Positions 10,290-57,950 are shown, numbered from the stretch's first letter. The stretch is DNA of 64,000 bases from Bacteroidales bacterium (GCA_035477775.1 DATIKH010000026.1:5029-69028), one strand, 5' to 3'. Notes: generated from the letters alone by a model not told the origin. Made by a program: numbers and translations.

Positions 10290-10397
10290 CTCTGCTGACT
10301 ACTCCCTCCTAAATTATATGGTTATTCAACATAGCGGCAAATAAAAATAAGATATGGCCGTTAAAATTTTATTCCTTAAAAAACCAATATAAGTTGC

Positions 10398-27226: not shown

Positions 27227-27300
27227 ACCTATGTGTTTGTTTTTATTTTTTTTGATCAAGTTTAAGTCCGGTCAATGAAGAATTCAACATAACAGCTATT

Positions 27301-42421: not shown

Positions 42422-43865
42422 GCCGCGAACTGATAACTACCATTGGCAATCCGGTTCCCGGCACAGTTGAAGCACCAACATAAAATACATTTTTAAATTT
42501 TTCGTCGAAATTCTTAGGTCTGAAACCTCCGATCTGGCCAAGGCCGTGTCCCAAGCCGAGTCCGCTCCCTTTATACAGATCAAAACTCTGTTCCCAGTCA
42601 ACCGGTGTTAGTACAGTTTGCGAAACGATGTGCTTCTTTAGATCAAACCCCAACCTTACACCCAGGTCGGTCAGTATGTTATCAGCTACCTGGGGACTGT
42701 CGCTCCAGTCGGGCTTATAGCGCCTGTCGGGAACAGGGCACAAAACAAACAATGCCTCGCATCCATCAGGAGCAGCAGTAGGATCTGCTTTAGAAACAAT
42801 ATTCAGATAATAGTATGGTTGATCAAGTTTTATTGCGTTGTTGAAGATTTTGCCTGAATATTCCCTGAAATTGTTTCCCAGAAAGTAGTTGTGCAGCGGC
42901 AGGTCATCCAACTTTCGGTCCAGGCCAAGGTACATGGAAAAAGGTGCAAATGTCCATGCCATCTTATCCAGTTTTGACTCACTAAATGCCGGCCTTTTGA
43001 AAACTTTGCCCCTAAACAAGGCTGCATCGGCATTGACCACAAACAGATCGGCATCCCATAGTCCTCCATGCTGGTCAACCAGGGCAGAAATTTCACCTTT
43101 CAGATTTTGTCGGTAGTCAACAATTTCGGTATTGAAATGAATGGGAATTCCAGCTTTATCGAGTTCCCTTTTGAGGCCTTCTACGATTTTATACATTCCC
43201 CCTTGCACATTGTGATACCCGTCGTGAACAAGCTCCGTGTAGGAAAGTATTGTGAAAATGGATGGGGTATTGAATGGTGTAGCCCCCAAAAAGAAGGCTA
43301 CAAGAGAAAAGATTTCTTTTGCTTCGCGCGACTCGAAGTATCTGCCGGCTTCGTCCCACATGGATCTCAGCAAACGGGGCGAATATTTGGGTGGCACCTT
43401 GGTGAGGGTAAGCAAATATTGCCAAACTGAATTGTAATTCCTTTTAATGATGAGATTCTCGGTATCGTGAAAAAAACCTGCGGCAGAATCAAGGAACCGA
43501 TGCATCTTTTGCTTGAAATCCGGCTCAATCCCTTCAAATTCAGCCGCAAGGTCGTCGAGGTTCTTGTGGATGTGAAACCGCCTGTCTGATCCGCGAAAAT
43601 GAACTACATACAAGGTGTCAAGCTCCCTGAAGGTGAAAGGCAATTCGCTTAGCCCTGCATCGGCCATGAACTCATCAAACTCGTATGTCATGCTGAAGAA
43701 AGTCGGCCCTAAATCCCAGGTAAAACCATCCTTTTTCAGTTGGTTAAGCCTTCCTCCAGGTTGATGATATTTCTCGACCAATTCGACCTTAAAGTTCCTT
43801 CGGTGAAGCCTCAGGGCAGTAGTCAAAGCACCAAGTCCGGAACCAACAATCAACACTTTTTTCAT
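42378..43865 (-). CDS. crtI: Phytoene desaturase
   Basis: KKVLIVGSGLGALTTALRL..VEKYHQPGGR and a C-terminal GASTVPGTGLPMV. ATG at 43865. Confidence 0.88.
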   Translation of the reverse strand: MKKVLIVGSGLGALTTALRLHRRNFKVELVEKYHQPGGRLNQLKKDGFTWDLGPTFFSMTYEFDEFMADAGLSELPFTFRELDTLYVVHFRGSDRRFHIHKNLDDLAAEFEGIEPDFKQKMHRFLDSAAGFFHDTENLIIKRNYNSVWQYLLTLTKVPPKYSPRLLRSMWDEAGRYFESREAKEIFSLVAFFLGATPFNTPSIFTILSYTELVHDGYHNVQGGMYKIVEGLKRELDKAGIPIHFNTEIVDYRQNLKGEISALVDQHGGLWDADLFVVNADAALFRGKVFKRPAFSESKLDKMAWTFAPFSMYLGLDRKLDDLPLHNYFLGNNFREYSGKIFNNAIKLDQPYYYLNIVSKADPTAAPDGCEALFVLCPVPDRRYKPDWSDSPQVADNILTDLGVRLGFDLKKHIVSQTVLTPVDWEQSFDLYKGSGLGLGHGLGQIGGFRPKNFDEKFKNVFYVGASTVPGTGLPMVVISSRLVVERIEKAYGSVH

Positions 43866-44066
43866 ACAATTCTGAAATTCTTTTAAACCCAATTTGCAAC
43901 ATGATTATACAAAACAACCTGCAGTGTGATTAAATTCGCTTTGTATTTTTTCTACTTTAAGCAGGAAAGCTTCCCTGTTCATTGTTTAATGTTTTGAATA
44001 AACTTATAAACAATCGCGGGCTTGAATTGTTCAAATCATTGCAACTAAGCCTTATCGTGTGATAAA

Positions 44067-45539
44067 ATGGGTAAAACGGCAGCTATAATCGGTGCAGGAA
44101 TTGGAGGGCTGGCGGCAGCATTGAGGCTAAGAACCAAAGGGTATCAGGTGGAGGTGTACGAGCAGGCTGCAGGCCCCGGTGGCAAAATAAAAGAAATCCG
44201 AATGAATGGATTTAGGTTCGATACCGGGCCATCCCTCTTTACATTTCCTGCTTTGGTTGATGAGTTGTTCAGTCTGTTTGGTGAAAATCCGGGTCGTTTT
44301 TTTAGGCACCAACAATTAGACAGCTCCTGTAAATATTTTTGGGACGACGGCACCACGATTAATGCCTGGCAAAATCCTACCCTTTTTTCTCAGGAGATTG
44401 AACAGGCAACAGGAGCCAAAGGCGACTGCGTATTGACTTATCTGCGGGAAAGCAAAGAACTTTATGACATTGCCGGCGACACCTTTATTTTTCACTCACT
44501 TCATAACCCGTCAAACTATTTTACTCCTTCGTTTCTGAAGACTTTGCTCAATATCTGGAAACTTGACCCCTTACGCACACTACACGACCGCAACAGGGCT
44601 TGTTTAAAAAACCCGAAGCTGGTTCAGATATTTGATCGCTACGCCACATATAATGGCTCGAGCCCCTACAAAACACCTTCGACATTGCGCATGATTGCTC
44701 ACCTGGAGCATAATACAGGAGCTCACTTCCCAAGAAAGGGAATGTTCGACATTGTTGCTTCGCTGGAGCGTTTAGCAGTTGCCAAAGGTGTCAAATTTCA
44801 TTACAATGCCAGGGTGGAAACCATCCTTACCAAAAACTCCCAAGTGCAAGGTGTAAGGGTCAACGGTCTGGATTATCCATTTAATTTGGTTTTAAGCGAC
44901 GTGGATGTGGTTAACCTGTACAACAACCTCCTGAGCGGTGTTCCGCTACCTGAAAATCAAACCAAACAGCAGCGTTCGAGTTCGGCAGTGATATTTTATT
45001 GGGGCATAAACAAAGCTTTTCCCAACATGCAGTTGCACAACATCCTTTTTTCAAACAATTACCGCGCTGAGTTCGACCACCTGTTCGAAACCCGTACTAT
45101 GAGTTCCGACCCGACGGTGTATGTTTTTATCAGTTCCAAAATTATTCCTGAGGATGCGCCCGAAGGTATGGAAAACTGGTATGTTATGGTCAATGCGCCT
45201 GAAGATACCGGCCTGAACCGAAAAATACTAATTAACGAAACGCGCAGCAAGATATTAGAAAAAATACGGCACACATTGAGGATAGACCTTACCGACCATA
45301 TCGTAGCGGAGGCAGTGGCCGATCCGCAGAGCATCGAATCCGAAACGGGATCATACAAAGGTTCGCTATACGGGCTAAGCTCTAACAATATTTGGGCAGC
45401 TTTCAACAGGCACCCAAATTTCTCCAGCAAAATAAAAGGCCTTTACTTTGTCGGGGGAAGCGTACATCCGGGCGGGGGCATTCCACTGTGCATGGCATCT
45501 GCCAAAATTATTGATAAAGAAATTCCATCAGTCAAATGA
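44067..45539 (+). CDS. crtD: CrtI-family desaturase, probably 1-hydroxycarotenoid 3,4-desaturase
   Basis: AAIIGAGIGGLAAALRL..YEQAAGPGGK and a C-terminal GGSVHPGGGIPL. It is divergent from crtI and followed by the cruF-like gene. Confidence 0.7.
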   Translation: MGKTAAIIGAGIGGLAAALRLRTKGYQVEVYEQAAGPGGKIKEIRMNGFRFDTGPSLFTFPALVDELFSLFGENPGRFFRHQQLDSSCKYFWDDGTTINAWQNPTLFSQEIEQATGAKGDCVLTYLRESKELYDIAGDTFIFHSLHNPSNYFTPSFLKTLLNIWKLDPLRTLHDRNRACLKNPKLVQIFDRYATYNGSSPYKTPSTLRMIAHLEHNTGAHFPRKGMFDIVASLERLAVAKGVKFHYNARVETILTKNSQVQGVRVNGLDYPFNLVLSDVDVVNLYNNLLSGVPLPENQTKQQRSSSAVIFYWGINKAFPNMQLHNILFSNNYRAEFDHLFETRTMSSDPTVYVFISSKIIPEDAPEGMENWYVMVNAPEDTGLNRKILINETRSKILEKIRHTLRIDLTDHIVAEAVADPQSIESETGSYKGSLYGLSSNNIWAAFNRHPNFSSKIKGLYFVGGSVHPGGGIPLCMASAKIIDKEIPSVK

Positions 45540-46201
45540 AAAACACCTTGAATACCTTCTTTAGTAACAAGGCGAACATAGTAAAAGTGCTCTTGGCTTT
45601 TTACTATTTGGTTGGCTTCTTAGGTCTTACCCACCCATTGACCGCTGAATTGTTCAAAAGCCTGATTCCTTTTACCATCCTGGCAAGCACTTTTATTTTG
45701 CTGCTGTATCACCCTGCCTGGCATAAATGGCACATTGCAGCTTTCGCAGTCATTGCACTTTTGGGCTATTGGATCGAAGTGGCAGGAGTGGCTACAGGAA
45801 TCATATTTGGCGATTATGAATACCTGTATGCCCTCGGGTTCGAAATTTTAAAAACTCCTCCGATAATTGGTCTGAATTGGCTCATGCTCATCTATGCGGT
45901 TTTTTCACTTCTGGAACCTCTTAAATGGCCGGCTTTAGCAAAAATTTTTGCTGGTTCATTACTCATGGTGGGCTACGACATTATTTTGGAGCCCGTTGCA
46001 ATGGCTCTAAACATGTGGACATGGGAAGGCGAAATAGTTCCAATACAAAACTATATGGCCTGGTTTTTTATCTCGTTCCTGTTCCTTTTCATCATGCACC
46101 GATCAAAAGTAGTTGCAAAGAATCCCATCGGAGGATACTTGTTTGTTTTACAATTTGCATTTTTCTTAGCCCTGAACATTTTTTTCAGCTTCCATGGTTA
46201 A
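45536..46201 (+). CDS. cruF: Carotenoid biosynthesis membrane protein (DUF422 / CruF-like hydratase)
   Basis: Polytopic 221-aa protein, 4-nt overlap with crtD, and placement inside the carotenoid cluster. Confidence 0.6.
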   Translation: MKNTLNTFFSNKANIVKVLLAFYYLVGFLGLTHPLTAELFKSLIPFTILASTFILLLYHPAWHKWHIAAFAVIALLGYWIEVAGVATGIIFGDYEYLYALGFEILKTPPIIGLNWLMLIYAVFSLLEPLKWPALAKIFAGSLLMVGYDIILEPVAMALNMWTWEGEIVPIQNYMAWFFISFLFLFIMHRSKVVAKNPIGGYLFVLQFAFFLALNIFFSFHG

Positions 46202-46814
46202 AGCACGCCACAATGCACTGGTCATAAAGCTCGTTGGAGCATTCCTTTTTGCTTTGATGAAAGTGGTATTTCGAAAAATTACCATCAAAGGTGATTTTGA
46301 AGATAGAAAACAGGCATTGCTGTTAATTGGAAATCATTTTAGCTGGTGGGACGGTTTTATTGGCCTTTACCTCAGCAAAAAGGTTTTAAAAAGGAAACTT
46401 TACGTAATGATGCTCGAGGAGCAATTGCAAAACCGAAAAGTGCTTAATCTTATGGGTGCCTTTTCGATTAAAAAAAACTCAAGATCGGCAATTGTTTCTT
46501 TGGATTATGCTTCGGAACTGCTTTGTGGAAAAGAAAACGCCTTGTTGTTGTTTCCGCAAGGTAAATTTCAGCCCATGAGCCAGTACCCTCTTACATTCGA
46601 AAATGGCTGGACGAGAATAATTTCAAAGGCGCAATGTGGGTTTCAGATAATTTTTATGGTTTGCCTTGCTGATTTTTTTTCGCACCCCAGGCCTGAGTTA
46701 ACCATTTTCTTTAAAGAATTTACTCTGGCCAACCCCAGGGATTTGACGATTTTTGAGAAAGCATACAACGAGTTTCTTCATGAGTGCATTCAACAACAAA
46801 AAGAAATAGCATGA
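46194..46814 (+). CDS. PlsC-family acyltransferase (CruD-like by context)
   Basis: HX4D motif NHFSWWDG. It overlaps both neighbours and sits inside the carotenoid cluster. Confidence 0.65.
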   Translation: MVKARHNALVIKLVGAFLFALMKVVFRKITIKGDFEDRKQALLLIGNHFSWWDGFIGLYLSKKVLKRKLYVMMLEEQLQNRKVLNLMGAFSIKKNSRSAIVSLDYASELLCGKENALLLFPQGKFQPMSQYPLTFENGWTRIISKAQCGFQIIFMVCLADFFSHPRPELTIFFKEFTLANPRDLTIFEKAYNEFLHECIQQQKEIA

Positions 46815-47902
46815 TTTGGCTCGCAATGGTGATTTTTGCGTTTTTAATAATTCGACTGCTGGTTGTAATTACAAACCTGATCACCCGCCCATGGCTCAGA
46901 TCCGGGAAATCCGCTGACCAACCATTGGTTTCGGTTTTGGTTCCTGCACGCAACGAAGAGAAAAACCTTCCTTTGCTGCTGAAAAGCCTCTCTGGCCAGA
47001 ATTACAATAACATAGAAGTAATAGTTTATAACGATCTTTCGGAAGACAGAACCGACCAAATCGTTTCGGAGTTTTCGACGCACGACGGCAGGGTACGGCT
47101 AATCAATGGTGTTGATTTGCCAGAGGGATGGCTCGGCAAACCACATGCCTGTCATAGGTTATCGGAACATGCCCGGGGCGAATACCTGATGTTTATTGAT
47201 GCTGACGTTGTTATTGGGCCTGAGCTTATCAACCAAAGTCTTTCTCATACCCGGAAGCTACGGTTAGACTTGCTGTCGATTTTTCCGGTTCAGATTATGG
47301 ATAGTTTTGGAGAGCGCATATCCGTGCCACTTATGAAGTGGATACTACTAAGTCTTTTGCCGCTCATTCTCACACGGGTTTCGGGCTGGAAAGCCTTTTC
47401 GGCTGCCAACGGTCAGTTTATGCTATTTAAAACCGAAGCCTATCGAAAATTCAGTTTTCACAAGTTGGCCAAAAATGAGATTGTGGAAGACATTAAGATT
47501 TTTAAACTTGCAAAAAAAATGGGATTGAGTTGCCAAACACTCATTGGCACCCATCAGATCAAATGCAGGATGTATGGAAGTTTCTCACAGGCTATTACAG
47601 GATTTTCGAAGAATGTTTTTGAATTTTTCGGAGGCAGTATTTTGCTGACTGCAGTAATGGTATTGTTAACTACCTTAGGTTTTTTACCGGTGTATCTTGC
47701 GCTTGGCTTTTTTTATGTAATGGTGTGGCTGACAGGAGAAATGCTGGTTAGGGCTTTGGTGGCTGTTGCTGCGCGGCAAAATGTTGGCCTGACGATTTTA
47801 TTATGGCCTGCTCAACAAATAGCTTTCGTGGTGGTTTTCCTAAATGCCATCAAAGCCAAAACGAGGGGTTATTGGGAATGGAAAGGCCGAAGGGTCAATT
47901 AA
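46811..47902 (+). CDS. Family 2 glycosyltransferase (CruC-like by context)
   Basis: VSVLVPARNEE, YNDLSED and FIDADV (DxD). C-terminal TM helices. ATGA overlap with the acyltransferase stop. Confidence 0.75.
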   Translation: MIWLAMVIFAFLIIRLLVVITNLITRPWLRSGKSADQPLVSVLVPARNEEKNLPLLLKSLSGQNYNNIEVIVYNDLSEDRTDQIVSEFSTHDGRVRLINGVDLPEGWLGKPHACHRLSEHARGEYLMFIDADVVIGPELINQSLSHTRKLRLDLLSIFPVQIMDSFGERISVPLMKWILLSLLPLILTRVSGWKAFSAANGQFMLFKTEAYRKFSFHKLAKNEIVEDIKIFKLAKKMGLSCQTLIGTHQIKCRMYGSFSQAITGFSKNVFEFFGGSILLTAVMVLLTTLGFLPVYLALGFFYVMVWLTGEMLVRALVAVAARQNVGLTILLWPAQQIAFVVVFLNAIKAKTRGYWEWKGRRVN

Positions 47903-49784: not shown

Positions 49785-50063
49785 GCCCGAATTGAAAGGT
49801 AAAAATCTCGGGATTCACATGACCATAACTTTTAATAGGTGAAAATTTTCAACAGGTGATGCTTTGTTCTTAAAAACACTACTCACCGATTTTGCTTTCT
49901 GAGCGGCAATACAAGGTTATGTTGATATTCTCTGCAAGTAAGTGGCTGCCTTGCACCGCTGCAGCAAGCCTTTTAAGTTGCGGGCAGAGAAAGAAAGGTT
50001 TTGAAACATTTATTATCAAAACATTACCACCTGTTTTGTAAATTTGTAAAAAGCAGTCAAGCC

Positions 50064-50266
50064 ATGGAAAATACCACTATTTTTCAAAGATTCGCTTTTA
50101 ACCTCCTGAATTAAAGGAAGAGGTATATGATTTTATTGACTTTTTGCTTGCCCGACGCAAAAAGGGGGAAAAGAAAAAACAACGAAAGTTTGGAGCTGCT
50201 GAAGGCAAAATTCAAACTTCGCCGGATTTTGACGCTCCTTTTGATGATTTAAAAAAATATATGTAA
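50064..50266 (+). pseudogene. Frameshifted DUF2281-like antitoxin remnant
   Basis: The ATG frame stops at 50112..50114 after 16 codons. The rest of the protein (PPELKEEVYDFIDFLLARRKKGEKKKQRKFGAAEGKIQTSPDFDAPFDDLKKYM) continues in another frame, which is closed by TAA at 50099..50101 and has no start of its own. Confidence 0.6.
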
Positions 50267-50375
50267 TGGACTTGCTCTTTGACACCCGTGCGCTGATTTG
50301 GTTCATAACGACAACCTAACCATAGAAACAGCCGACGAAAACATAAAAAAGTATAAAATTAAAACCCTTTGGTGA
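50266..50375 (+). pseudogene. PIN-domain (VapC-like) toxin remnant with an internal deletion
   Basis: TAATG overlap with the antitoxin stop. An N-terminal 17 codons (MDLLFDTRALIWFITTT) then a stop, followed in a different frame by a C-terminal-like piece LTIETADENIKKYKIKTLW. Confidence 0.55.
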
Positions 50376-50516
50376 TAAGGGCCTTCGCAACCACCCCCTC
50401 AAACCCACCCAAAACAGCATGATTTTAGAGGTAAAAAATGTTAGGTATTGCATTTGTCGTTTTTTTTTTTTCTTTGAGGGTTAAAATGAATGTTTAACCT
50501 TAAAAAAAGAAATGAC

Positions 50517-50759
50517 ATGAAAATGAAAGTTTTGAGTTTTGCACTTGCGTTGGCAATGACAACACTAAGTTTAAATCTGGGGGCAGGAAGCCGTCAGTGG
50601 TCTATTTGCACACAGGAAACTATAAACTGCTTCAATGAAAACTTAGAGCCAGTAGGAGGCGCTATGGTTATGGCATGTGGTGATACCTGGCAGGAATGGC
50701 GAGCAATGATGAATGACTATGCTGAAATATTTTGTGGACATAGTGCTTGGGGTTTTTAA
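50517..50759 (+). CDS. Small secreted 4-Cys peptide, paralog 1
   Basis: MKMKVLSFALALAMTTLSLNLGAG signal. The mature part is SRQWSICTQETINCFNENLEPVGGAMVMACGDTWQEWRAMMNDYAEIFCGHSAWGF. It shares its Cys framework with 51823..52029. Confidence 0.6.
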   Translation: MKMKVLSFALALAMTTLSLNLGAGSRQWSICTQETINCFNENLEPVGGAMVMACGDTWQEWRAMMNDYAEIFCGHSAWGF

Positions 50760-50772
50760 TTAAATAGCCAAC

Positions 50773-50843
50773 AAAGAGGCAGGTGGATAAAAACAGAAAC
50801 TCATATACGGTTTACAAGCTTACCCGTCTGCCTCTGTTTTTTT
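50773..50843 (+). terminator. Long-loop hairpin plus T-tract between peptide 1 and GLPGLI 1
   Basis: agaggcag (50775..50782) pairs with ctgcctct (50828..50835). The loop is about 45 nt and is followed by ttttttt. Confidence 0.45.
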
Positions 50844-50861
50844 ACCAATAAAACACCAATT

Positions 50862-51680
50862 ATGAAATACAATTTTTTCTGGCTTTTCATTTTCTTGCCT
50901 TCTTTCGTTTTCTCACAGGGATTTTTTGATCCCATTCCGGCCAAAACCCTCGACACGGTAAAATTAACTGTAACATATTCATTCCTTTTTACCCCGGATT
51001 CTCTTAACCCTGAATACAAAAATGAAGTTGATGTTGTGTTATTCATCGGCTCAAGTATTTCCCTTTACCAGTGTTTAAATTCATTTATCGGGACAAAATT
51101 GTTGGCCGGGAGCAGGAATATGGATGAGTTGAGACAAAGGGCCAGGAAGGCTCCAACTTCAACGTTTTCAACTAAGATATTTAAAAACTACCCTCCGGGC
51201 ATGATTACAACAACCGACAGAATAATGCCGGATAATTTCATTTTCCGGGAAGATTTAAACCAATTTAAGTGGAAAATTTCAAGCCAAACAACCAAAATTG
51301 CAAACTACACCGCTCAAAAAGCCACTGTTGAATTCGGTGGAAGGTCATGGGTTGCGTGGTTTACCACTGAAATACCAATAAGCGATGGGCCACATAAATT
51401 CAACGGACTACCCGGATTAATACTGAGGTTGTATGACACCCGGAACCATTTTGTTTTTGATATTGTTTCCATTAAAGAGCCTGAAGAGCCCCAACTCATA
51501 GAGTTGCAAAATTTAAGGTATATCGAAACCACAAAGGCTAACTTCCGAAGGGCAAGGGAGGCTTTTCGCCAAAGCGTTATTAGCGAAACTTTCGAACTCA
51601 TTACTGATCCTGATGCCCGCAGGCTGGCTGCTCAAAACATGAGCCGCAGAAATAACCCTATGGAGCTGAGACTTGATTAA
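50862..51680 (+). CDS. GLPGLI family protein, paralog 1
   Basis: Signal peptide, KATVEFGGRSWVAWFT.EIPISDGPHKFNGLPGLILRLYD, and C-terminal RRNNPMELRLD. Confidence 0.85.
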   Translation: MKYNFFWLFIFLPSFVFSQGFFDPIPAKTLDTVKLTVTYSFLFTPDSLNPEYKNEVDVVLFIGSSISLYQCLNSFIGTKLLAGSRNMDELRQRARKAPTSTFSTKIFKNYPPGMITTTDRIMPDNFIFREDLNQFKWKISSQTTKIANYTAQKATVEFGGRSWVAWFTTEIPISDGPHKFNGLPGLILRLYDTRNHFVFDIVSIKEPEEPQLIELQNLRYIETTKANFRRAREAFRQSVISETFELITDPDARRLAAQNMSRRNNPMELRLD

Positions 51681-51699
51681 TTAAATAATAAATTGCTAC

Positions 51700-51811
51700 T
51701 GGGCTAAAGCCCTTGTATTCAGGGCTATCCATTACCCCCGACCTTAAGGTCGGGGTAACTGAAAACCAAAGAGTTAACGGGCTTTAGCTCTGAAATTGTT
51801 AGTTCTTAGAC
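51700..51811. repeat. Structured MITE-like intergenic repeat, copy B
   Basis: Aligns with 27301..27412. Inner hairpin (c)ccccgacc-ttaa-ggtcgggg (51736..51755). Outer arms gggctaaagccc and gggctttagctc pair with one G-U. Confidence 0.7.
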
Positions 51812-51822
51812 CGAATTTACGG

Positions 51823-52029
51823 ATGAAAAAGAAGATTCTTAGTTTAGCGTTTGCAGCGCTTTTGACAATTGGGCTGGCTACCACCACTGCTAATGCAGAA
51901 GTGCATTGTTTTAGTTTTCTGATTGTATGTGGTGATAAGTCCATGCTTGGCGGTTATATATGTGGACATTTTCAAACTGCCCAGGAAATGGTTGATTTAG
52001 TGTGGGGAATGGGAGAATTATTCTGCTAG
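51823..52029 (+). CDS. Small secreted 4-Cys peptide, paralog 2
   Basis: MKKKILSLAFAALLTIGLATTTANA signal. The mature part is EVHCFSFLIVCGDKSMLGGYICGHFQTAQEMVDLVWGMGELFC. Confidence 0.6.
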   Translation: MKKKILSLAFAALLTIGLATTTANAEVHCFSFLIVCGDKSMLGGYICGHFQTAQEMVDLVWGMGELFC

Positions 52030-52051
52030 AATTATAGATCAAATTGCAACT

Positions 52052-52138
52052 ATAAACGGCTGTTCCGAACTCATTTATTTCGAATGAACCAAATGCTACT
52101 GGTAATAATTAGGTTAAAAGAACAGCCGTTTATTTTTT
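52052..52138 (+). terminator. Long-loop hairpin plus T-tract between peptide 2 and GLPGLI 2
   Basis: Perfect 13-14-bp stem ataaacggctgtt(c) / (g)aacagccgtttat around a ~54-nt loop, followed by tttttt. Confidence 0.5.
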
Positions 52139-52188
52139 AAGCAATTAAATTGTTTTAATGTTTTCAAAAAACAAAAATTAAAACCAGA

Positions 52189-53070
52189 ATGAGCTCAATT
52201 TCGATAGTTAATCCACTCAAAATTAAATTAGCGTGCCTCTCTAAAGCCAAATTCATTCTTTTTGGATTATTGGTACTGGCAGTAAACCCAATAAATGCTC
52301 AGGCATTATTAGAAGTCGAAAATATAGACCAGGCACGAATTGTTGTTGCCTACAACCTGAATTTTAGCGAGGACACAAATGACTTAGACCGTGTAAGACA
52401 CGAAAGAATGATGCTTTTAATTGGCGATGAAATAAGCATGTTTGCGAGCTATAACAAGCTGCACAACGATAATCTGCTAAAGGGGCTTGATGAAAGGGCC
52501 GGAGTCGCTCATGTGTTAGGTGCTGCCACAACGGGAAGAGCGCCTACTCGTTTCGGCGGATTGCACATTCTAAAAAACTTCAGGAATAACCGACTCATAT
52601 ATAACAACAATATGTTCAATGATTGGTATATCTATGAAGAACCACTTAACCAAATAAATTGGGAGCTTACCGATCAAAAAAGTGAGCATTTGGGCAATAC
52701 CGTTCAAAAAGCAACGGCTCGTTTCGGGGGCCGCCTTTGGGAAGCCTGGTTTACATCTGATATTCCGTTTTCTGATGGACCGTATAAATTCAATGGCCTG
52801 CCGGGTCTAATCTTAAAAATTCAGGATTCCGAAAAACATTATGTTTTTTCAGCGGAATCAATATCTGTGCCTGAGAAAGAAAGGGCCATTTATAGAAAGA
52901 AGCGCCAAAACTACCATGTAAGCCGAAGGCAATATTTAGATATAAGGCAAAATAAGGCGAATGTATGGACTCAACGACTTACTGAATGGGGAAATTCTCC
53001 CGAAATGGTCAAACAGCTAGAGCAAAGAATGAAAAGCCGAAACAATCCCATTCAGTTGCGGGCGGAGTAA
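52189..53070 (+). CDS. GLPGLI family protein, paralog 2
   Basis: KATARFGGRLWEAWFTSDIPFSDGPYKFNGLPGLILKIQD, and C-terminal SRNNPIQLRAE. Confidence 0.85.
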   Translation: MSSISIVNPLKIKLACLSKAKFILFGLLVLAVNPINAQALLEVENIDQARIVVAYNLNFSEDTNDLDRVRHERMMLLIGDEISMFASYNKLHNDNLLKGLDERAGVAHVLGAATTGRAPTRFGGLHILKNFRNNRLIYNNNMFNDWYIYEEPLNQINWELTDQKSEHLGNTVQKATARFGGRLWEAWFTSDIPFSDGPYKFNGLPGLILKIQDSEKHYVFSAESISVPEKERAIYRKKRQNYHVSRRQYLDIRQNKANVWTQRLTEWGNSPEMVKQLEQRMKSRNNPIQLRAE

Positions 53071-53083
53071 ACCCAAGGATTTT

Positions 53084-53218
53084 TTGAGTTTAGCGTTTTC
53101 GATTGCAATGTTCTTTAGTCTTGCAAAGTCTTTTGCCGACTGCCCAGAGTTTACAATGATTTGCGCCGCAGGAAGTGGCGCCATAAGTAAAGACCTTCGT
53201 GCAGGACTGATCTCTTAA
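53084..53218 (+). pseudogene. Truncated third paralog of the small Cys peptide (44 codons, TTG start, below ORF-track cutoff)
   Basis: Hand translation gives (L/M)SLAFSIAMFFSLAKSFADCPEFTMICAAGSGAISKDLRAGLIS. It keeps the signal-like segment and the first C-x6-C pair but lacks Cys3 and Cys4. It occupies the same position (just upstream of a GLPGLI gene) as the two intact copies. Confidence 0.4.
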
Positions 53219-53241
53219 AAGCACACAAAAAAAGTATAAAC

Positions 53242-54060
53242 ATGACACATTTCATTTTTTGGCTTGCCTGCCTGCTGAGTTTGCCCGCTTTTTCGCAATT
53301 GTTTCGCGTACCTCCTGAAAAGGAAATTGAACCGGTAGAGTTAGCTGTAACCTACAGGAAGGTTATGCAGATGGATTCGCTCGATCCGCAAGATTTGAGG
53401 AATGAAAAAATGATGCTTTGGATAGGAAGAAATACCAGTGTGTTTTTCAGCTACTACCGTCATATTGCGGAAGTGAAAAATAAACAACTGTCAAAAGCAG
53501 AAATTATCGCCTGGATGAACTCACATCCAAAACCACAAATAGGTCTTACTTACAGGATCCATAAAAACTACCCTGAAGGAAAAATCACCAAAATTGACGC
53601 TGTTTTAACCGATTTATTCCTTTATCACGAAAATATGCCTTTGTTCACCTGGGAAATTCAGGCCGACACCGGCACCATTTTGGGCTATCCGGTGCAAAAG
53701 GCTACAACCAGATTCAGAGGCAGAAGCTGGGTTGCATGGTTTGCACCCGGTATGCCGATCAGCGACGGGCCGTATAAATTCCACGGCCTGCCGGGACTGA
53801 TCCTGAAAATGTATGACACCAGAAACCATTTTTTGTTCGAGGCCTTGTCCATTGAAAGGCCCTCCGAGCTACAAATGATTGTTTTTATTATGCGGGACTA
53901 TTTCAGAACCACCGTAGAAAACTTTTTTCGCACCAGAAATGCAAGTAAGAGCGATGCCTCTGCAAGAATCAGTCACCTGTTACCCAACGGCCAGGCCCGG
54001 AATATAATGGCAGAAAACATCCGCCGCCGTTTCAACCCAATTGAACTGAGACTTGAGTAA
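53242..54060 (+). CDS. GLPGLI family protein, paralog 3
   Basis: KATTRFRGRSWVAWFAPGMPISDGPYKFHGLPGLILKMYDTRNHF, and C-terminal RRFNPIELRLE. It is closest to paralog 1. Confidence 0.85.
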   Translation: MTHFIFWLACLLSLPAFSQLFRVPPEKEIEPVELAVTYRKVMQMDSLDPQDLRNEKMMLWIGRNTSVFFSYYRHIAEVKNKQLSKAEIIAWMNSHPKPQIGLTYRIHKNYPEGKITKIDAVLTDLFLYHENMPLFTWEIQADTGTILGYPVQKATTRFRGRSWVAWFAPGMPISDGPYKFHGLPGLILKMYDTRNHFLFEALSIERPSELQMIVFIMRDYFRTTVENFFRTRNASKSDASARISHLLPNGQARNIMAENIRRRFNPIELRLE

Positions 54061-54114
54061 TTGAAAAACCCGGCAGAGTAGCACGATTTTTGGTAGAAAA
54101 TTAAAAAAACCTAC

Positions 54115-56748
54115 ATGAAGTTTGCAGGCTTTTTGTTGTTTTTCTTTCTGCCTTTTCAGGCGCTGCTGGGGCAGGTATCGCTCGAGGGAAGGGTTGTAAG
54201 CGAGCAGGGCGAGGCGCTGCACAACATCAATATTCTTATTTACCCAAAGGGCAGCGTGGCAATTGTGGCATTTGCCGTGAGCGACCCCCAGGGCCGCTGG
54301 CGCACTGTGGTAAACAGCGCTGCCGACAGCCTCGACATAGAAGCCAGCAGCATACACTACCGCAACGAGCGCCGCCGCATTGCCAATCGCTCGCAAACAG
54401 TGCCGTTCGAACTGACGAAAGAGGTGAAGCAACTCGATGTGTTTACCGTCCGTGCCCGGGAAATTGAACAACGGGGCGATACCATCAGTTTTTTGGTAAG
54501 CGCTTTTGCGCAGGAGCAACATCGCTCCATTGCCGATGTGCTTCGCACCATGCCGGGACTGGAGGTGGAGCCTTCGGGCCGCATCCTCTACCAGGGTGCG
54601 CCTATCAATCGCTTTTATGTAGAAGGACTCGACCTGATGGGCGGCCGTTATACCATGATCAGCAACAATATGCCCCACCGCGCGGTATCAACCGTTGAGA
54701 TTTTAGAAAACCACCAGCCCATACGCATACTCGAAGAGCGGGTGCCTTCGTACCAAGCCGCCCTGAACCTGAGGCTCAAGCGCGAAATCACCACCACCGG
54801 TACCGCTAAGCTGGGCGCCGGACACGGTCCCGTGCTATGGGATGCCAATATTACGCCCATGACCTTTACCGACCGGTTTCAGGTGGTAAACTCATACCAG
54901 GCCAACAATGCAGGTCAGGATGCGGCCAAACAGCTCCGGGCTTTCACCTTCGAGGGTTTTCGCCGCCGTGTGGAACGCCCCGGGGAGAACCCCGAAATGT
55001 TAGGCATACAGTCCCTTGCCCCGCCCGACTTCAACGAGAACCGCTTTCTTGACAACAACATACACCTGCTCAACAGCAATGCCCTGATGCGCCTCAACAA
55101 CGACTTCCAGCTACGAGCCAATATCCATTTCATTACCGATAACCAGCGCCAGCAAGGCTTTACCAACCGCACCCTCTATTCGCCAGCCGACACTCTTTTC
55201 TTTGCCGAATCGCTCGAAAACCGCCTGAACGACAGCTACCTGCAGGGCGAAATCACCCTGAAGCGAAATGTTCCGGAAAATTTCCTAAACAACATACTGC
55301 GGTTCAACCGGAGGTGGGACAGCAGCCGGGGCGCGCTCAACATCAATCACCTCGGCCTGAGCCAATCGGTGAACAATCCCTTTCGCAACATTTCGAACGA
55401 ACTGAGGTCGGTCAACCCGGTGGGCAAGCATCTGGTAGAGTTTAATTCGTTTGTTTCGTTTGATCACAGTCCACAGCAACTGCTGGTAAGTCCGGGGCGC
55501 TTTGAGTTTGCGCTTGCCGGAGGCGAGAGGGTTGAAAAACTGCGTCAGGAACTTGATCTGAAGCGATTTTTTGCCGACCACTCAGCCGGCTTTACATTTA
55601 GCTGGCAGGGAATGACCATTGGCCCGCGCCTCGGCTTCTCGTACCGCCGCCAAAACCTTGCTACCGATTTGTTTTTGCAGCAGGGCGAGAGTTGGCTCGA
55701 AGCTCCGCCTGCCTTTTGCAACCAACTTGAAGGGAGCCATACCCGCGCCTATTTGGATACCGATGTGAGTTACCGTTTAAACGACCTGACGATGTCGGCC
55801 AACCTGCCGCTAAGCTGGCAGCACCTGAACCTCGACGACCATGCCCTTCAACAGGGACAACGACTCAGCCGCCTGTTGTTCGACCCCAGGCTCTCGGCCG
55901 ATTATCACATCAGCGGTTTCTGGCGCGTAAGAGGCTCGTGGAGTTACTCAACCGACCTTGGCGATATTGACGGGGTGCATTACGGCTACATTTTGAAAAA
56001 TCACCGCAACCTGCAGCAAAGCGCAACGCCACTTTCAGAAACCAGCCGCCACAACCTGTCTGCATTTGTCAGCTACCGCAACCCCATCACCTCATTCTTT
56101 AACTCGCTCAACTACTTTTTTTCAATCAGCAACCACAGCCTGATGCACAGCAACCAGGTGCAGCCAGACGGCACTACCATTCTCGAAGCCATTGAGATGC
56201 CAAACAGGGGCTTTAGCCACAACCTGAGCGGGCAAACCAGCAAATTCTTCAGCCCTACCCGAAGCACACTGTCGCTGCGCTTAAGCTATAGTTACCTCCG
56301 CCGGCAGGCGCTTCTCAACCGGCAATTGTTCGAAACATCGAACCAGTTCATAATCCTCGCCCCACAGATCAATACCCGCTTCGCCGAATGGCTTAGGGGA
56401 GAGTACAGGGCCAACCTGAACTTTATACAGACCCAAATCGGGTCGGAGAATACAAGCAATATCAGCATGCTTAGGCATTACCTCGATTTTCATGTGTTTC
56501 CGCGAAGTGGCCATTACCTTGGACTTACCACCGAATTCTACCGTCACCGGGGAAATGAAAACTTTTTCGTTGACCTGTTGTACCGCTTTACCCTCGAAAG
56601 ACGCCGCCTCGACATTGAAGCCCGCTGGCTCAACATTTTCAATACCCAAACATATACTACCTTCCATGCAAGCGCCTTTTCGGTAATCGAAACCACCTAT
56701 ATGCTCCGCCCCTCGCAGGTGCAACTTTCAGTGCGCTTCAGTTTTTAA
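54115..56748 (+). CDS. CarboxypepD_reg + plug-like + beta-barrel outer-membrane protein (TonB-dependent-receptor-like)
   Basis: Signal peptide, LEGRVVSEQGEALHNINILI, a plug-like region (IADVLRTMPGLEVEPSGRILYQGAPINRFYVEGLDL), 877 aa, and a C-terminal ..LSVRFSF with terminal Phe. Confidence 0.65.
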   Translation: MKFAGFLLFFFLPFQALLGQVSLEGRVVSEQGEALHNINILIYPKGSVAIVAFAVSDPQGRWRTVVNSAADSLDIEASSIHYRNERRRIANRSQTVPFELTKEVKQLDVFTVRAREIEQRGDTISFLVSAFAQEQHRSIADVLRTMPGLEVEPSGRILYQGAPINRFYVEGLDLMGGRYTMISNNMPHRAVSTVEILENHQPIRILEERVPSYQAALNLRLKREITTTGTAKLGAGHGPVLWDANITPMTFTDRFQVVNSYQANNAGQDAAKQLRAFTFEGFRRRVERPGENPEMLGIQSLAPPDFNENRFLDNNIHLLNSNALMRLNNDFQLRANIHFITDNQRQQGFTNRTLYSPADTLFFAESLENRLNDSYLQGEITLKRNVPENFLNNILRFNRRWDSSRGALNINHLGLSQSVNNPFRNISNELRSVNPVGKHLVEFNSFVSFDHSPQQLLVSPGRFEFALAGGERVEKLRQELDLKRFFADHSAGFTFSWQGMTIGPRLGFSYRRQNLATDLFLQQGESWLEAPPAFCNQLEGSHTRAYLDTDVSYRLNDLTMSANLPLSWQHLNLDDHALQQGQRLSRLLFDPRLSADYHISGFWRVRGSWSYSTDLGDIDGVHYGYILKNHRNLQQSATPLSETSRHNLSAFVSYRNPITSFFNSLNYFFSISNHSLMHSNQVQPDGTTILEAIEMPNRGFSHNLSGQTSKFFSPTRSTLSLRLSYSYLRRQALLNRQLFETSNQFIILAPQINTRFAEWLRGEYRANLNFIQTQIGSENTSNISMLRHYLDFHVFPRSGHYLGLTTEFYRHRGNENFFVDLLYRFTLERRRLDIEARWLNIFNTQTYTTFHASAFSVIETTYMLRPSQVQLSVRFSF

Positions 56749-56780: not shown

Positions 56781-56811
56781 CCGAAACCCACTCTTCAAGA
56801 GCGGGTTTCGG
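56781..56811. terminator. Terminator hairpin between convergent OMP genes
   Basis: ccgaaacccactc / gagcgggtttcgg with one mismatch. The A-run upstream reads as a U-tract for the minus-strand gene. The T-tract on the plus side is weak. Confidence 0.6.
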
Positions 56812-56858: not shown

Positions 56859-57950
56859 TTACCTGAAGCTGATACCTACGCCTGCAGTAGCCACGGGATA
56901 GCGGGCCAGGGTATAGGAAGCATGAAAATGCAGCACGGCAAGTTTAAAACCGGCTCCTACTGTAAACTGAAACTCCCCTGAGTTCCTATACTCAAGCGTC
57001 ATGGGATTGCTTAGATCCACGATGTTGGCCGTACGCAGTACCGGGTCTACATTCAACACCGGATAGTCGCCCACCAGACCAAAGGTCGTATTTGAAGAAG
57101 CATAGCCGAGTGAGGTAAAAGCCGTGAAAAAAGGAATGTCAATCGAGGCGATCAGGTTTATGGTATATCCGCTGGAGTTCATCTCAAACTCCTGGTTGTC
57201 GTAGCTAGGCCTTCCGCCCGTAACAGGAATCCCGCTTACGGTCGTAGGGTATATATTCCTCTGTAAATCAAGATCCATTGAGGCATTAAGGTCTGAATAA
57301 GCGCCAAGCAACGACAGATTCCAGAATGGCACCCGGCGGGCAACGGGTATCAGGCTTTTTAAATCGTATTTGACACCTACCCCCCAAAGGGAACCTTGAC
57401 GGCCCCGGTAGTTAAGCTGAGGAACAAAGCGCCCAAACAATTCAAAACCTCCTGGTAATCCAATACCTGCCCTGACCATGGGTATAGGCACAGCAGGCAC
57501 ACGGAACCCGTCGGGTGAAGCAAACTCAAGAATGGTAACAGGAGTAGGTACAGGAGGGAAGCTCTCCGAATAGTGAAGCACAGGCCTGGCAGATTCGCGG
57601 CCGGCAATGGTTGGCGCCATAAAGACACTCGGATCGCGAAGCTGAAGATTGTCAAACGCTATTTGCCTGAGATCAAACATCCTGTCTTCACTTGGAATCA
57701 AGGCAGTGTTGAAGGTAAACGTAACATTGAAGCCCAGGGTATTGTGAACCCGTGCCGTATTGAACCAACCTGCGTTCAATGTCGCACCAAGTCCGTAGCC
57801 GAGTGGCTTCATATAGGCGTGGGCAAGTTTCTCTGCATCGCTGATTCCTCCCCGCATAAAATCGACAACTGCTTGCTGGGAATGAGCTCTCAAAGAGATC
57901 AAAGAAAATACCGCTAAAAACAACCAACTGATGGTTCTGGTTTTTTTCAT
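56859..57950 (-). CDS. Hypothetical outer-membrane beta-barrel-like protein
   Basis: Signal peptide MKKTRTISWLFLAVFSLISLRAHS and a Gly/aromatic alternating pattern. I do not securely recognise the family. Confidence 0.45.
   Translation of the reverse strand: MKKTRTISWLFLAVFSLISLRAHSQQAVVDFMRGGISDAEKLAHAYMKPLGYGLGATLNAGWFNTARVHNTLGFNVTFTFNTALIPSEDRMFDLRQIAFDNLQLRDPSVFMAPTIAGRESARPVLHYSESFPPVPTPVTILEFASPDGFRVPAVPIPMVRAGIGLPGGFELFGRFVPQLNYRGRQGSLWGVGVKYDLKSLIPVARRVPFWNLSLLGAYSDLNASMDLDLQRNIYPTTVSGIPVTGGRPSYDNQEFEMNSSGYTINLIASIDIPFFTAFTSLGYASSNTTFGLVGDYPVLNVDPVLRTANIVDLSNPMTLEYRNSGEFQFTVGAGFKLAVLHFHASYTLARYPVATAGVGISFR

Follow-up and report, generated by a model that had tools for sequence, protein, structure and literature searches.

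What a small secreted cysteine-containing peptide does beside a GLPGLI protein and an outer-membrane barrel is the question raised by a locus in a Bacteroidales bacterium. The locus lies in a 64,000-nucleotide stretch of DNA (GCA_035477775.1 DATIKH010000026.1:5029-69028), here called the window. A preliminary description had reported a unit of two genes, one for a 4-Cys peptide and one for a GLPGLI-family protein, repeated three times ahead of a plug-and-barrel protein, and had likened the arrangement to bacteriocin/immunity or ligand/receptor loci. It had also considered the GLPGLI family to lack an assigned function, in agreement with the open-access literature searched, which gave no functional description of GLPGLI; nor did the sources searched give a function for the peptide or barrel families. 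The window contains, in several cassettes, an apparently undescribed envelope module of three parts (miniprotein, GLPGLI protein, and SusC-like barrel) that is found across Bacteroidota.

Organization of the locus

The two-gene units and the gene for the 877-aa protein are all present as described, on the + strand. The first peptide gene, pep1 (50517..50759), encodes an 80-aa 4-Cys miniprotein of "type A" from the MKMKV start at 50517 that public gene calls and homologues use; a longer ORF begins at 50490. It is followed by GLPGLI-1 (50862..51680; 272 aa; TIGR01200 E 8e-50). The second unit consists of pep2 (51823..52029, or from 51796 in a longer ORF), a "type B-like" 4-Cys miniprotein of 68 aa counted from MKKKIL, and GLPGLI-2 (52189..53070; 293 aa; TIGR01200 E 9e-51). 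Abutting the GLPGLI-2 stop codon is a third small ORF (53084..53218; TTG start, 44 aa), which precedes GLPGLI-3 (53242..54060; 272 aa; TIGR01200 E 4.5e-51). The ORF of the outer-membrane protein (54115..56748; 877 aa, C-terminal ...VRFSF) begins after a spacing of 54 nt.

As read from the sequence, the third small ORF has only Cys1 and Cys2, lacks an ATG and an n-region, and gave no match in a search with the peptide family profile. This is the remnant of a decayed gene, and the reported triplication thus holds for the GLPGLI genes but not for intact peptides, which are duplicated only. Each of the two intact peptide genes and the decayed copy lies 5' of a GLPGLI gene. In a related locus (L012), the orthologue of GLPGLI-3 (86% identical) likewise has no peptide upstream.

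A long hairpin with a U-run lies on the + strand right after pep1 (50775..50843; MFE -20.9 kcal/mol; z -3.3) and another right after pep2 (52052..52138; MFE -25.6 kcal/mol; z -3.6), and in both cases 0/200 shuffles fold as well. There is no hairpin 3' of the decayed gene. In other loci, 39 of 64 peptide genes are followed by a comparable hairpin (-8 kcal/mol or better) next to a T-run, a raw uncontrolled count. The element after pep1 is a possible attenuator or 3'-stabiliser.

Distribution and divergence of the module

The preliminary proposal that Cys-framework secreted peptides are conserved GLPGLI partners beside an outer-membrane barrel is strongly supported phylum-wide. Among 80 Bacteroidota genome loci surveyed, a barrel homologue directly follows 60/75 GLPGLI arrays (80%), and a peptide of the family starts 34 of the 56 complete operons, leaving about 39% without a detectable peptide gene. 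Operons contain 1-7 GLPGLI copies, and additional copies without a peptide are common. Small ORFs are strictly placed: 38/82 GLPGLI arrays in other genomes have, directly upstream, an ORF that combines a signal peptide and the 4-Cys framework, as against 0/203 control genes taken from the surveyed loci (Fisher p = 1e-24), and when both strands of 787 kb were searched with the peptide profile, all 58 matches fell on the GLPGLI strand and 55 ended <450 nt 5' of a GLPGLI gene. The flanks share no further conserved gene family, making the module self-contained. Two Chryseobacterium loci (L095, L099) have peptide and GLPGLI genes without an adjacent barrel, and GLPGLI-barrel pairs without a peptide also occur; since either partner can be absent while GLPGLI is kept, GLPGLI appears to be the hub.

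The peptide family is defined by a Sec-type signal and four Cys in the framework C-x6-C-x10-C-x18-C, all four invariant in 41 aligned sequences, and the Cys of pep2 align with those of the family. Profile searches recover pep1 (E 9e-13) and pep2 (E 1.2e-9), and a search of 1.8 billion proteins yielded 52 cluster representatives, including one false positive. The exact pep1 protein is called on 8 public contigs, and its orthologues (49-63% identity) occupy the equivalent position 5' of orthologous GLPGLI genes; pep2 is identical to the family member P0004 and present on 9 contigs. No Pfam or NCBIfam family matches the peptides, and public records read "hypothetical". Single-copy lineages (Chryseobacterium, Tenacibaculum, Hymenobacter, Roseivirgaceae) keep the peptide across orders, and at moderate divergence dN/dS is 0.10-0.28, which denotes purifying selection. 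The shortness of the small ORFs, their absence from curated databases, and the clear degeneracy of the third window copy might suggest frames in GLPGLI leaders that arose by chance or lack a function, but invariant Cys, constrained dN/dS, a confident AF2 fold, the clean controls, the uniform strand, and the 52 cluster representatives practically refute this reading.

In the window's lineage, the peptide-GLPGLI unit duplicated and diversified, leaving two cassettes intact and one peptide gene decayed. Paralogues share almost their entire signal peptide (21/22 aa, 63/66 nt), while their mature parts are 25-40% identical. Close relatives differ in the content and order of their cassettes, and peptide genes decay beside intact GLPGLI genes, both in the window (pep3) and in L012, which has a truncated pep2. 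In pairs of near-identical strains, nonsynonymous changes number 15 in the peptide gene and 4 in its GLPGLI neighbour, and synonymous changes 1 and 6, respectively (p = 0.005). Clear GLPGLI orthologues (at least 60% identity) also have each other's best-matching peptides as neighbours (Mantel p = 0.001). The best homologues of GLPGLI-1 elsewhere are GLPGLIs that follow type-A peptides, and by this sequence comparison GLPGLI-1 is assigned as the probable cognate of pep1. GLPGLI-2 has an 87% identical orthologue in L012 and is ~50% identical to GLPGLIs that follow type-B peptides in three further loci (L001, L014, L023).

Predicted structures of the three products

The product of the first gene is a Sec-exported, very acidic miniprotein of ~40-55 residues, predicted to form a β-hairpin and an α-helix. 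In pep1, a Sec-type signal precedes a mature part of ~55 aa with the framework C31-x6-C38-x15-C54-x18-C73; in pep2 the framework is C-x6-C-x10-C-x20-C, and the spacing previously given for the two peptides is exact. The AF2 model of pep1 has pLDDT >90 over residues 30-73 and places the hairpin at 30-39/45-55 and the helix at 58-73, a fold presumably locked by two disulfides. Net charge averages -5.7 across family peptides. The peptides have no lipobox, so a lipoprotein cargo is not evident. Invariant Cys, model confidence, dN/dS, and net charge together support a real, folded, secreted product.

The second genes are GLPGLI genes, as claimed: an HMM search gave 170-174 bits against TIGR01200 (cut-off 50) for all three proteins and put them above the PF09697 threshold. 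The conserved C-terminal NNP motif also holds, NNP-x-E-L being fully or almost fully conserved across 67 aligned sequences, in which many further polar residues and the GLPGLI loop are also invariant. The confident AF2 model of GLPGLI-1 (pLDDT 90) suggests a periplasmic LolA/RseB-like open half-barrel whose C-terminal tail is both flexible and invariant; the tail combines low model confidence with near-invariant sequence, which suits docking to a conserved partner. In Foldseek searches, the best structural match is the N-terminal domain of PNGase F-II (PDB 4R4X/4R4Z; E 1.6e-8, TM 0.51, ~216 columns), followed by RseB, VioE, and LolA/LolB. That domain (PF22252), fused to a glycanase and without an established role, is also the sole weak sequence match to the stand-alone GLPGLI family besides the family itself, below the Pfam threshold. 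Like LolA/LolB and RseB, GLPGLI is modelled as an unclosed β-barrel with helices (E 1e-4 to 1e-2), and would be soluble in the periplasm, probably to sense a ligand, or shuttle one, between periplasm and outer membrane. Unlike them, it has extra C-terminal helices and the conserved tail, lacks sequence-level homology to them (TM-scores are low, 0.3-0.35), and its gene lies beside those of a small Cys peptide and a large barrel instead of LolCDE or RseA. GLPGLI proteins are expressed, as vesicle preparations of Tannerella forsythia contain them, one being predicted to be periplasmic (PMC10682907).

The 877-aa protein has a signal, a SusC-type N-terminal (carboxypeptidase-regulatory-like) domain, the TonB-box-like motif LDVFTVRA, a plug-like segment, and a C-terminal β-signal with a final Phe. 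Its match to PF13620 is weak, but homologues pass the Pfam cut-off. The barrel family profile matches the SusC homologue 8aa4 (E 5e-8), aligning "LkevtvkA" to LDEVVVVG, which we take to be the SusC TonB box. The BtuB plug motif matches the family profile at E 0.75, below threshold, weak Plug matches occur in 2/6 homologues, and no Pfam or NCBIfam barrel model matches the remaining ~750 residues. The label "plug-and-barrel" is therefore borne out for the SusC-type N-terminal domain and TonB-box-like motif, whereas the plug is matched only below threshold and neither plug nor barrel by a model above it. These features support a dedicated outer-membrane protein, probably organized like a SusC-type transporter (N-terminal domain, TonB-box-like and plug-like motifs, large C-terminal region, terminal Phe) but partnered by GLPGLI and a miniprotein instead of a SusD-like lipoprotein.

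Possible roles of the module

In the best reading, which we hold at somewhat below an even chance, the peptide would be cargo or ligand, GLPGLI its periplasmic carrier, and the barrel a TonB-driven gate. The miniprotein would be mobile and is probably made in excess, because its gene is first in the operon and often followed by a hairpin and U-run. GLPGLI would bind it in the periplasm and act as the hub of the system: its body would determine which peptide is bound, and the shared tail would dock onto the common barrel, through which, energised by TonB, the miniprotein would cross the outer membrane. The preferred direction is that of ligand and receptor (a reading already raised in the preliminary description, and viable): the peptide would exit its producer, then re-enter it or enter neighbours through the barrel, and be captured by GLPGLI in the periplasm, in a role akin to that of a proteinaceous "-phore" or kin signal. 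Hemophores such as HasA-HasR are larger and have their own secretion system and a defined ligand. As in HasA-HasR, a self-encoded secreted (and putatively binding) protein adjoins an outer-membrane receptor, with receptor-only loci in non-producers; unlike it, the module has no exporter and an obligatory periplasmic LolA-like protein. Import has a precedent in BfUbb, a small secreted Bacteroides ubiquitin homologue that reaches the periplasm through the TonB-dependent SusCD transporter ButCD, whose sequence variation sets specificity (PMC11467351). BfUbb differs in its ubiquitin fold, its lack of a LolA-like partner, and its demonstrated toxicity, whereas the module is known from genes and models. 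The BfUbb gene is not known to share an operon with its importer.

The cargo-carrier-gate model does not explain how the Sec-exported periplasmic peptide first exits the cell, and the flanks contain no conserved inner-membrane transporter, sensor, or regulator, which is awkward for import of a nutrient or signal. An export-only pathway, in which GLPGLI would chaperone the folded miniprotein and pass it to the barrel for release to the surface or medium, needs no separate exit route and no inner-membrane step other than Sec, and so fits the missing inner-membrane or cytoplasmic partner. In Myxococcus, the TonB-dependent-type protein Oar releases PopC, to which such a pathway may be likened. A first-placed peptide gene followed by a hairpin and U-run is seen with many secreted structural products, and an acidic, disulfide-rich miniprotein would suit extracellular stability; but barrels that carry both a TonB box and a plug are known almost always as importers, export being exceptional, and peptide-free operons and extra GLPGLIs would be machines without cargo unless it is encoded elsewhere. 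Export alone seems unlikely. Peptide-free operons and GLPGLIs also mean that the GLPGLI-barrel core, the best conserved link, may act on something else. It might move a hydrophobic small molecule or lipid between outer membrane and periplasm in a LolA-like cavity, with the miniprotein an optional adaptor, lid, or regulator. LolA/RseB/ependymin/VioE-fold proteins typically bind hydrophobic ligands, the invariant loop and polar residues suggest a conserved ligand site (the latter would suit a small molecule or catalysis better than binding of a variable peptide), and GLPGLI is not complementary in charge to the acidic peptides. We consider this, too, improbable: it leaves unexplained the joint duplication and diversification of the cassettes and the first-placed peptide gene with its attenuator-like hairpin, and no conserved inner-membrane acceptor of a lipid or ligand is nearby.

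Less probable still is the bacteriocin-like role suggested by the preliminary description, for which no specific support emerged. The miniprotein would be antagonistic, each GLPGLI would neutralise its cognate, the barrel would export the toxin, and peptide-free GLPGLIs would be orphan immunity genes. Iterated cassettes with conserved signals and very divergent mature parts, the nonsynonymous excess between strains, variable cassette content and order, and peptide decay beside intact GLPGLI resemble orphan immunity arrays, and bacteroidetocins and class II bacteriocins are likewise small Cys-containing ribosomal peptides of Bacteroidota in iterable multi-gene loci. Such bacteriocins are cationic or amphipathic when mature and rely on double-glycine leaders and C39 ABC exporters, whereas the miniproteins have Sec signals, are strongly anionic, and lack a dedicated ABC exporter. 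Purifying selection and conservation across orders in single-copy lineages also argue against antagonism, as does the high conservation of GLPGLI with its invariant tail, which is unlike typical immunity proteins. It is not obvious why an immunity protein would require a tight phylum-wide linkage to a barrel, the strongest in the module and kept where the peptide gene is missing. PADLOC gave no matches, and just four GLPGLI relatives were found in 2.9 million viral contigs.

With the peptide as probable cargo or ligand, GLPGLI as carrier, and the barrel as gate still the preferred reading, the three-gene module offers a testable function for the so far uncharacterised GLPGLI family.

Organization of the operon in the window

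The operon comprises, on the forward strand, three genes of the GLPGLI family, two intact genes for small four-cysteine peptides, and a gene for a large putative outer-membrane barrel protein. The first peptide gene (pep1, 50517..50759) encodes 80 aa from MKMKV within a longer ORF that begins at 50490, and is followed by GLPGLI-1 (50862..51680), the second peptide gene (pep2, 51823..52029, 68 aa), GLPGLI-2 (52189..53070), a third small ORF of 44 aa with a TTG start (pep3, 53084..53218), and GLPGLI-3 (53242..54060). The barrel ORF (54115..56748, 877 aa, terminal residue Phe) begins 54 nt past GLPGLI-3. At least eight public sequencing runs yielded independent assemblies of this DNA, with identical gene calls.

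Both intact peptides have a K-rich n-region, a hydrophobic core, and the framework C-x6-C-x10/15-C-x18/20-C. Of these features, the third ORF, which starts 13 nt past the GLPGLI-2 stop, retains only the hydrophobic core and Cys1-x6-Cys2. Because its ATG and n-region are gone, it has no match to the peptide-family profile, and frameshift rescue is ruled out by stops throughout the other frames, pep3 is a decayed peptide copy. The cassette that the preliminary description called triplicated is thus threefold in its GLPGLI genes and has two intact four-cysteine peptides, the third being decayed.

Folding detects a long hairpin with a U-run after pep1 and another after pep2 (z -3.3 and -3.6); at other loci, a hairpin of -8 kcal/mol or lower abuts a T-run after 39 of 64 peptide genes (a raw, uncontrolled count). 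A scan for consensus promoters and terminators returned no more sites than shuffled sequence and missed the long post-peptide hairpins that folding detected. Rfam searches for riboswitches or leader RNAs around the operon gave nothing below E 0.1. The ~730 nt upstream of pep1 (49785-50516) contain no long ORF, no Rfam match, and a long T-run at ~50458-50472; public annotations place a 41-aa ORF at the position of window 50127-50252.

Downstream, a strong terminator with a 14-bp stem (56781-56811) separates the barrel gene from a convergent DUF6588 gene (56859-57950, reverse strand; E 2e-82). The latter is a neighbor kept only in the window's closest relatives and lies outside the module. Upstream, at ~41561-47902, is a carotenoid-type set (phytoene synthase-like, two amino-oxidase/desaturase-like, Caroten_synth, acyltransferase, and GT2), then a TPR protein and a tandem-Usp protein; a Usp gene is also found upstream of the arrays in three other Bacteroidota loci (L012, L023, and L036). 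The Bacteroidota origin of the window is supported by a 776-aa protein (121-2451, forward strand) whose C-terminus is a type IX secretion sorting domain (Por_Secre_tail).

The peptide family and the conserved gene triad

The small ORFs are genes belonging to one family. With pep1 as the sole query, a word-indexed search returned a single relative; combining the window peptides with their first relatives in a profile raised the yield to nine. When 1.84 billion cluster representatives were searched exhaustively with HMMER, 52 passed E <= 1e-3, of which one, a eukaryote-like tandem repeat, is clearly a false positive. The remaining members (46 inspected) are 51-96 aa long and carry a signal peptide by heuristic calls, their N-termini being of Sec type (K-rich n-region, hydrophobic core, and small residues before the predicted cleavage site). 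Members that remain clearly alignable across distant lineages come from Chryseobacterium (GCVDVTLSCGVTGVACGETVGDIIDVVLAADDAYCGN), Tenacibaculum (GCFGFTLSCGVSGTACGSDTSALIDMILAVDDLIC), Hymenobacter (NCVDVTLSCGLHGQECGETTSEIITKVIAAEEAYCGD), and Bacteroidales MAGs (PCHTGVLTCPDGSTHIVVYCDAQDWWTWSQIYCG). The four cysteines are invariant in the 41-sequence alignment (A6); their register was taken from larger alignments (A4 and A6) rather than from a MAFFT alignment of four peptides (A2). Among orthologous peptide pairs at moderate divergence, dN/dS is 0.10-0.28.

Across 94 non-redundant mature peptides, loops of 6, 10, and 18 residues are most frequent, the mean net charge is -5.7 (99% are negative), and K+R make up 2.8% of residues. 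A Bacteroidota O-glycosylation sequon was rejected as a family feature, as only 9 of the 94 have one. The AlphaFold2 model of the pep1 product, built on the 41-sequence alignment, has pLDDT >90 over residues 30-73 and consists of a β-hairpin (30-39 and 45-55) followed by a helix (58-73); a structure search of the PDB gave it no significant neighbor (best E 1.3). Pfam and NCBIfam, searched with the window peptides, ten diverse relatives, and all 41 alignment members, gave sub-threshold matches only, mostly over the signal-peptide region. Public records name members "hypothetical protein", except for two truncated cluster members labeled IclR regulator. Fold prediction and the heuristic signal calls thus show what is, as predicted, a new family of folded, secreted, acidic four-cysteine miniproteins. 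A longer member (L021, 8655-8960; 101 aa) has a proline-rich spacer between signal and cysteine domain and seven cysteines in total; variants with 5-7 cysteines also occur in L035, L037, L069, and L094, so that the framework tolerates added cysteines.

On contigs with close relatives of the window peptides, a small gene is always followed by GLPGLI, iterated two to four times. A wider survey used a GLPGLI alignment as sole bait on one-genome-per-species Bacteroidota assemblies and covered 80 loci from Bacteroidales, Lentimicrobiaceae, Flavobacteriales, Cytophagales, and Sphingobacteriia. A barrel homologue comes directly after 60 of the 75 GLPGLI arrays whose downstream sequence extends 1.5 kb or more (80%), and a family peptide is present in 34 of 56 complete operons (61%), prevalences that apply to relatives of the window GLPGLI genes and not to the whole family, since the survey took the 80 top-scoring loci out of more than 597 stretches that encode GLPGLI. 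The full-length barrel homologues match at phmmer E 1e-125 or better. A mature-peptide profile run against both strands of 787 kb gave 58 hits, all 58 on the GLPGLI strand and 55 ending <450 nt upstream of a GLPGLI start. Under a stricter regular-expression definition, 38 of 82 arrays have a peptide ORF, and none of the 203 control genes drawn from those loci does (p = 1e-24). The idea in the preliminary description depended on small cysteine ORFs being conserved next to GLPGLI genes in related genomes and being under purifying selection; these counts and the invariant cysteines bear out the first point, and the dN/dS values the second.

The outcome is a conserved gene triad. Conserved flanking genes were sought (regulator, inner-membrane transporter, or exporter), and none is common to more than 5 of the ~80 loci; with no other family conserved on either flank, the module is self-contained: a peptide, one to seven GLPGLI genes, and a barrel. 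GLPGLI is its hub, for it pairs with the peptide in the absence of an adjacent barrel (L095 and L099) and with the barrel where there is no peptide gene. Two Bacteroidales genomes have a small helix-turn-helix-like gene immediately before the peptide gene (L034, 4494-4745; L039, 5316-5672), a possible local regulator that is not conserved across loci.

Most lineages have one peptide per operon and one to three GLPGLI genes. The peptide-GLPGLI unit is iterated in the window's clade, as in L023 (Bacteroidales UBA4814; seven GLPGLI genes and six peptides), L036, L014, and L009. Within arrays, paralogous signal peptides are identical at up to 21 of 22 aa and 63 of 66 nt, and mature parts are 25-40% identical. 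Where GLPGLI orthologues of different genomes share at least 60% identity, the peptide beside the orthologue is likewise the top match among peptides, and a Mantel test within the window's clade indicates co-inheritance of the two (p = 0.001). Between two near-identical strain pairs, the peptide shows 1 synonymous and 15 nonsynonymous changes vs 6 and 4 in the adjacent GLPGLI gene (Fisher p = 0.005), a short-timescale nonsynonymous excess that consists of small counts (16 peptide substitutions).

Cassette order and content vary even among close relatives. In the syntenic locus of a related species (L012), the GLPGLI-2 and GLPGLI-3 orthologues are 86-87% identical to those of the window, and the order over 5172-11043 is GLPGLI-3 orthologue, truncated pep2, an extra GLPGLI gene, a duplicate of the barrel 5' end (7295-7453, 52 aa), GLPGLI-2 orthologue, and barrel. 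The pep1/GLPGLI-1 cassette is absent there, and the truncated pep2 has lost Cys3 and Cys4. An interspersed palindrome of ~100 bp that resembles a REP or MITE element (core CCCCGACCTTAAGGTCGGGG; fold energy -43 kcal/mol, z -4.6) is repeated at window 51696-51795 and 27296-27395 and at L012 4946-5045 and 6004-6100. One copy lies between GLPGLI-1 and pep2; since the two in L012 lie at other array junctions, the element may be a marker or a mediator of cassette rearrangement.

The GLPGLI and barrel proteins

The three window proteins score 169.8, 172.8, and 173.8 bits against TIGR01200 (cut-off 50) and 38.6-54 bits against PF09697 (Porph_ging; cut-off 25), above both curated cut-offs, so that their assignment to the family in the preliminary description was correct. 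The name-giving motif reads NGLPGLIL, NGLPGLIL, and HGLPGLIL, and G182-I187 is invariant across 67 sequences, which also carry many invariant polar residues. The GLPGLI-1 protein has a signal of the SPase-I type, without a lipobox, and a near-invariant Gln at the predicted cleavage site, which fits the Bacteroidota 'Q-rule'.

The AlphaFold2 model of GLPGLI-1 (pLDDT 90, pTM 0.85) has as its top Foldseek match the N-terminal domain of PNGase F-II (E 1.6e-8, TM 0.51), followed by P. gingivalis LolA3, RseB, VioE, ependymin-related proteins, and LolA/LolB; for RseB, VioE, the ependymin-related proteins, and LolA/LolB, the Foldseek probability is 0.98-1.00 and the TM score only 0.3-0.35. From these matches, GLPGLI is modeled as a LolA-like open half-barrel with added helices, a resemblance at the level of the fold only. 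The open antiparallel β half-barrel with helices is shared with the LolA/LolB/RseB group by structure only, and the PNGase F-II N-domain is likewise a fold-level relative. The LolA, LolB, and RseB models of Pfam and NCBIfam do not match the window GLPGLI proteins, and a PDB sequence search returned only PNGF-II (E 0.018).

The last ten residues of GLPGLI are modeled with low confidence and include N264, N265, P266, E268, and L269, all invariant or nearly so; we infer that this tail serves as a short motif by which GLPGLI docks onto a conserved partner. Position along the array has a weak signature, the best cross-genome hits sharing last-before-barrel status in 35 of 54 cases vs ~52% by chance. 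The proteins are approximately neutral, and charge complementarity to the peptides is absent (Spearman rho 0.04). Several paralogues per genome occur in pathogens (e.g., Porphyromonas gingivalis, Tannerella, and Riemerella), with nine in Porphyromonas. Only 4 GLPGLI relatives were found in 2.9 million viral contigs, and a phage association was rejected. Where open-access papers mention GLPGLI, they do so solely in tables of expression or proteome data or under an annotation category, in keeping with the earlier remark that the family has no assigned function; none mentions PF09697, TIGR01200, or Porph_ging, and on the PNGase F-II N-domain the literature offered nothing of use.

The 877-aa protein has almost no curated annotation in Pfam or NCBIfam. 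A profile of 42 members of its family matches the SusC homologue 8aa4 (E 5e-8) over the N-terminal carboxypeptidase-regulatory-like domain, and also 9hfj, an N-terminal domain on its own (E 8e-4); the cut-offs of PF13715/PF13620 are passed by homologues and missed by the window protein itself (18.8 vs 32.3 bits). In the alignment with 8aa4, 'LkevtvkA' of the profile (LDVFTVRA in the window) falls opposite LDEVVVVG, which we take to be the SusC TonB box, a motif resemblance only. The Plug domain PF07715 is sub-threshold (E 0.12-0.14) in two of six homologues and has no hit in the window protein even at E 10, and the similarity of the segment DVLKxMPGIEV to the BtuB plug motif is weak (E 0.75). 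TonB_dep_Rec-type barrel models match neither the window protein nor its homologues, and the C-terminus (...SVRFSF) is β-signal-like. Profile comparison therefore shows a SusC-like N-terminus on a putative barrel protein: the SusC-type domain of the "plug-and-barrel" first described stands, its plug matches stay below threshold, and its barrel is matched by no model. The window also encodes an 819-aa protein of another uncharacterized Bacteroidota outer-membrane family (24248-26707, forward strand; CarbopepD_reg_2 domain, then DUF5686); a relationship to the barrel was rejected beyond the N-terminal domain, the sole region that aligns.

Proposed mechanism and significance

Literature and membership comparisons found no described system composed of peptide, GLPGLI, and barrel, so that the module is rated as a new kind, whose mechanism may prove a variant of TonB-dependent transport. 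The barrel family shares the N-terminal carboxypeptidase-regulatory-like extension of the SusC type; unlike SusCD pairs, the operon lacks a SusD-like lipoprotein, the barrel gene being followed in the window by the convergent DUF6588 gene and, across the 80 loci, by no conserved family. A Sec-signal RiPP metallophore (bufferin/HvfA) was rejected, the only match being NF050188 at 17.7 bits (cut-off 95), largely over the signal region, and the operon contains no modifying enzyme of the MNIO (DUF692) type. A chaperone-usher pathway was rejected as well: GLPGLI is LolA-like rather than Ig-like, and no usher model hits the barrel.

Given the hub position of GLPGLI, we tentatively prefer, in general form, a model of cargo, carrier, and gate. 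The miniprotein would be a mobile ligand, GLPGLI would bind it in the periplasm and use its conserved tail to dock on the barrel, which would serve as a TonB-energized gate. Uptake or re-uptake would be the preferred direction, since TonB-box barrels, to our knowledge, import with few exceptions, which makes a pathway dedicated to export alone unlikely; cargo import does leave the exit route of the peptide unexplained. Receptor-only operons and orphan GLPGLI copies also fit uptake, in the form of eavesdropping or piracy. A precedent is BfUbb, a small secreted Bacteroides protein imported by a TonB-dependent SusCD transporter (PMC11467351).

Other observations weigh against the cargo-carrier-gate model: in ~39% of complete operons no peptide gene was detected, GLPGLI and peptide are not complementary in charge, GLPGLI has many invariant polar residues, and no inner-membrane partner is conserved nearby. 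The system might instead transport a hydrophobic small molecule, with the peptide as an accessory, which we consider improbable. The likeness to bacteriocin loci drawn in the preliminary description is not specifically supported: class II bacteriocins and bacteroidetocins have a double-glycine leader, a C39-peptidase ABC exporter, and a cationic or amphipathic mature peptide, whereas the peptides here are Sec-type and acidic, and an ABC exporter is neither present in the operon nor conserved in the flanks of the 80 loci. PADLOC defense-system models gave nothing meaningful, and a toxin-immunity system is very unlikely. Returning to the cargo-carrier-gate model, a more specific version, which we regard as rather doubtful, is that the module belongs to an unrecognized Bacteroidota outer-membrane trafficking system for ribosomal disulfide miniproteins, in which a LolA-like GLPGLI carrier and a dedicated TonB-dependent barrel would move a secreted acidic four-cysteine peptide, and cassette duplication and diversification would create strain-private channels. 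Such channels, if real, could carry kin signals, privatized '-phores', or antagonistic peptides with cognate binders, and the trafficking reading would supply the first function for the GLPGLI family and for a family of large unannotated barrels.

GLPGLI (TIGR01200/PF09697) is a large Bacteroidota-specific family without known function, now placed in a testable system: a conserved operon with a SusC-like barrel, mostly with miniproteins, that offers a candidate ligand, carrier, and gate. The peptides represent a new compact ββα scaffold, probably disulfide-stabilized, with hypervariable surfaces. For annotation, the lesson is that genes of ~200 nt, unnamed or "hypothetical", can explain adjoining "hypothetical" families. 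If the model is true, small folded proteins would have a new route across the Bacteroidota outer membrane, and cassette diversification would point to recognition or competition at the level of strains in communities of the gut, mouth, rumen, sea, and soil.
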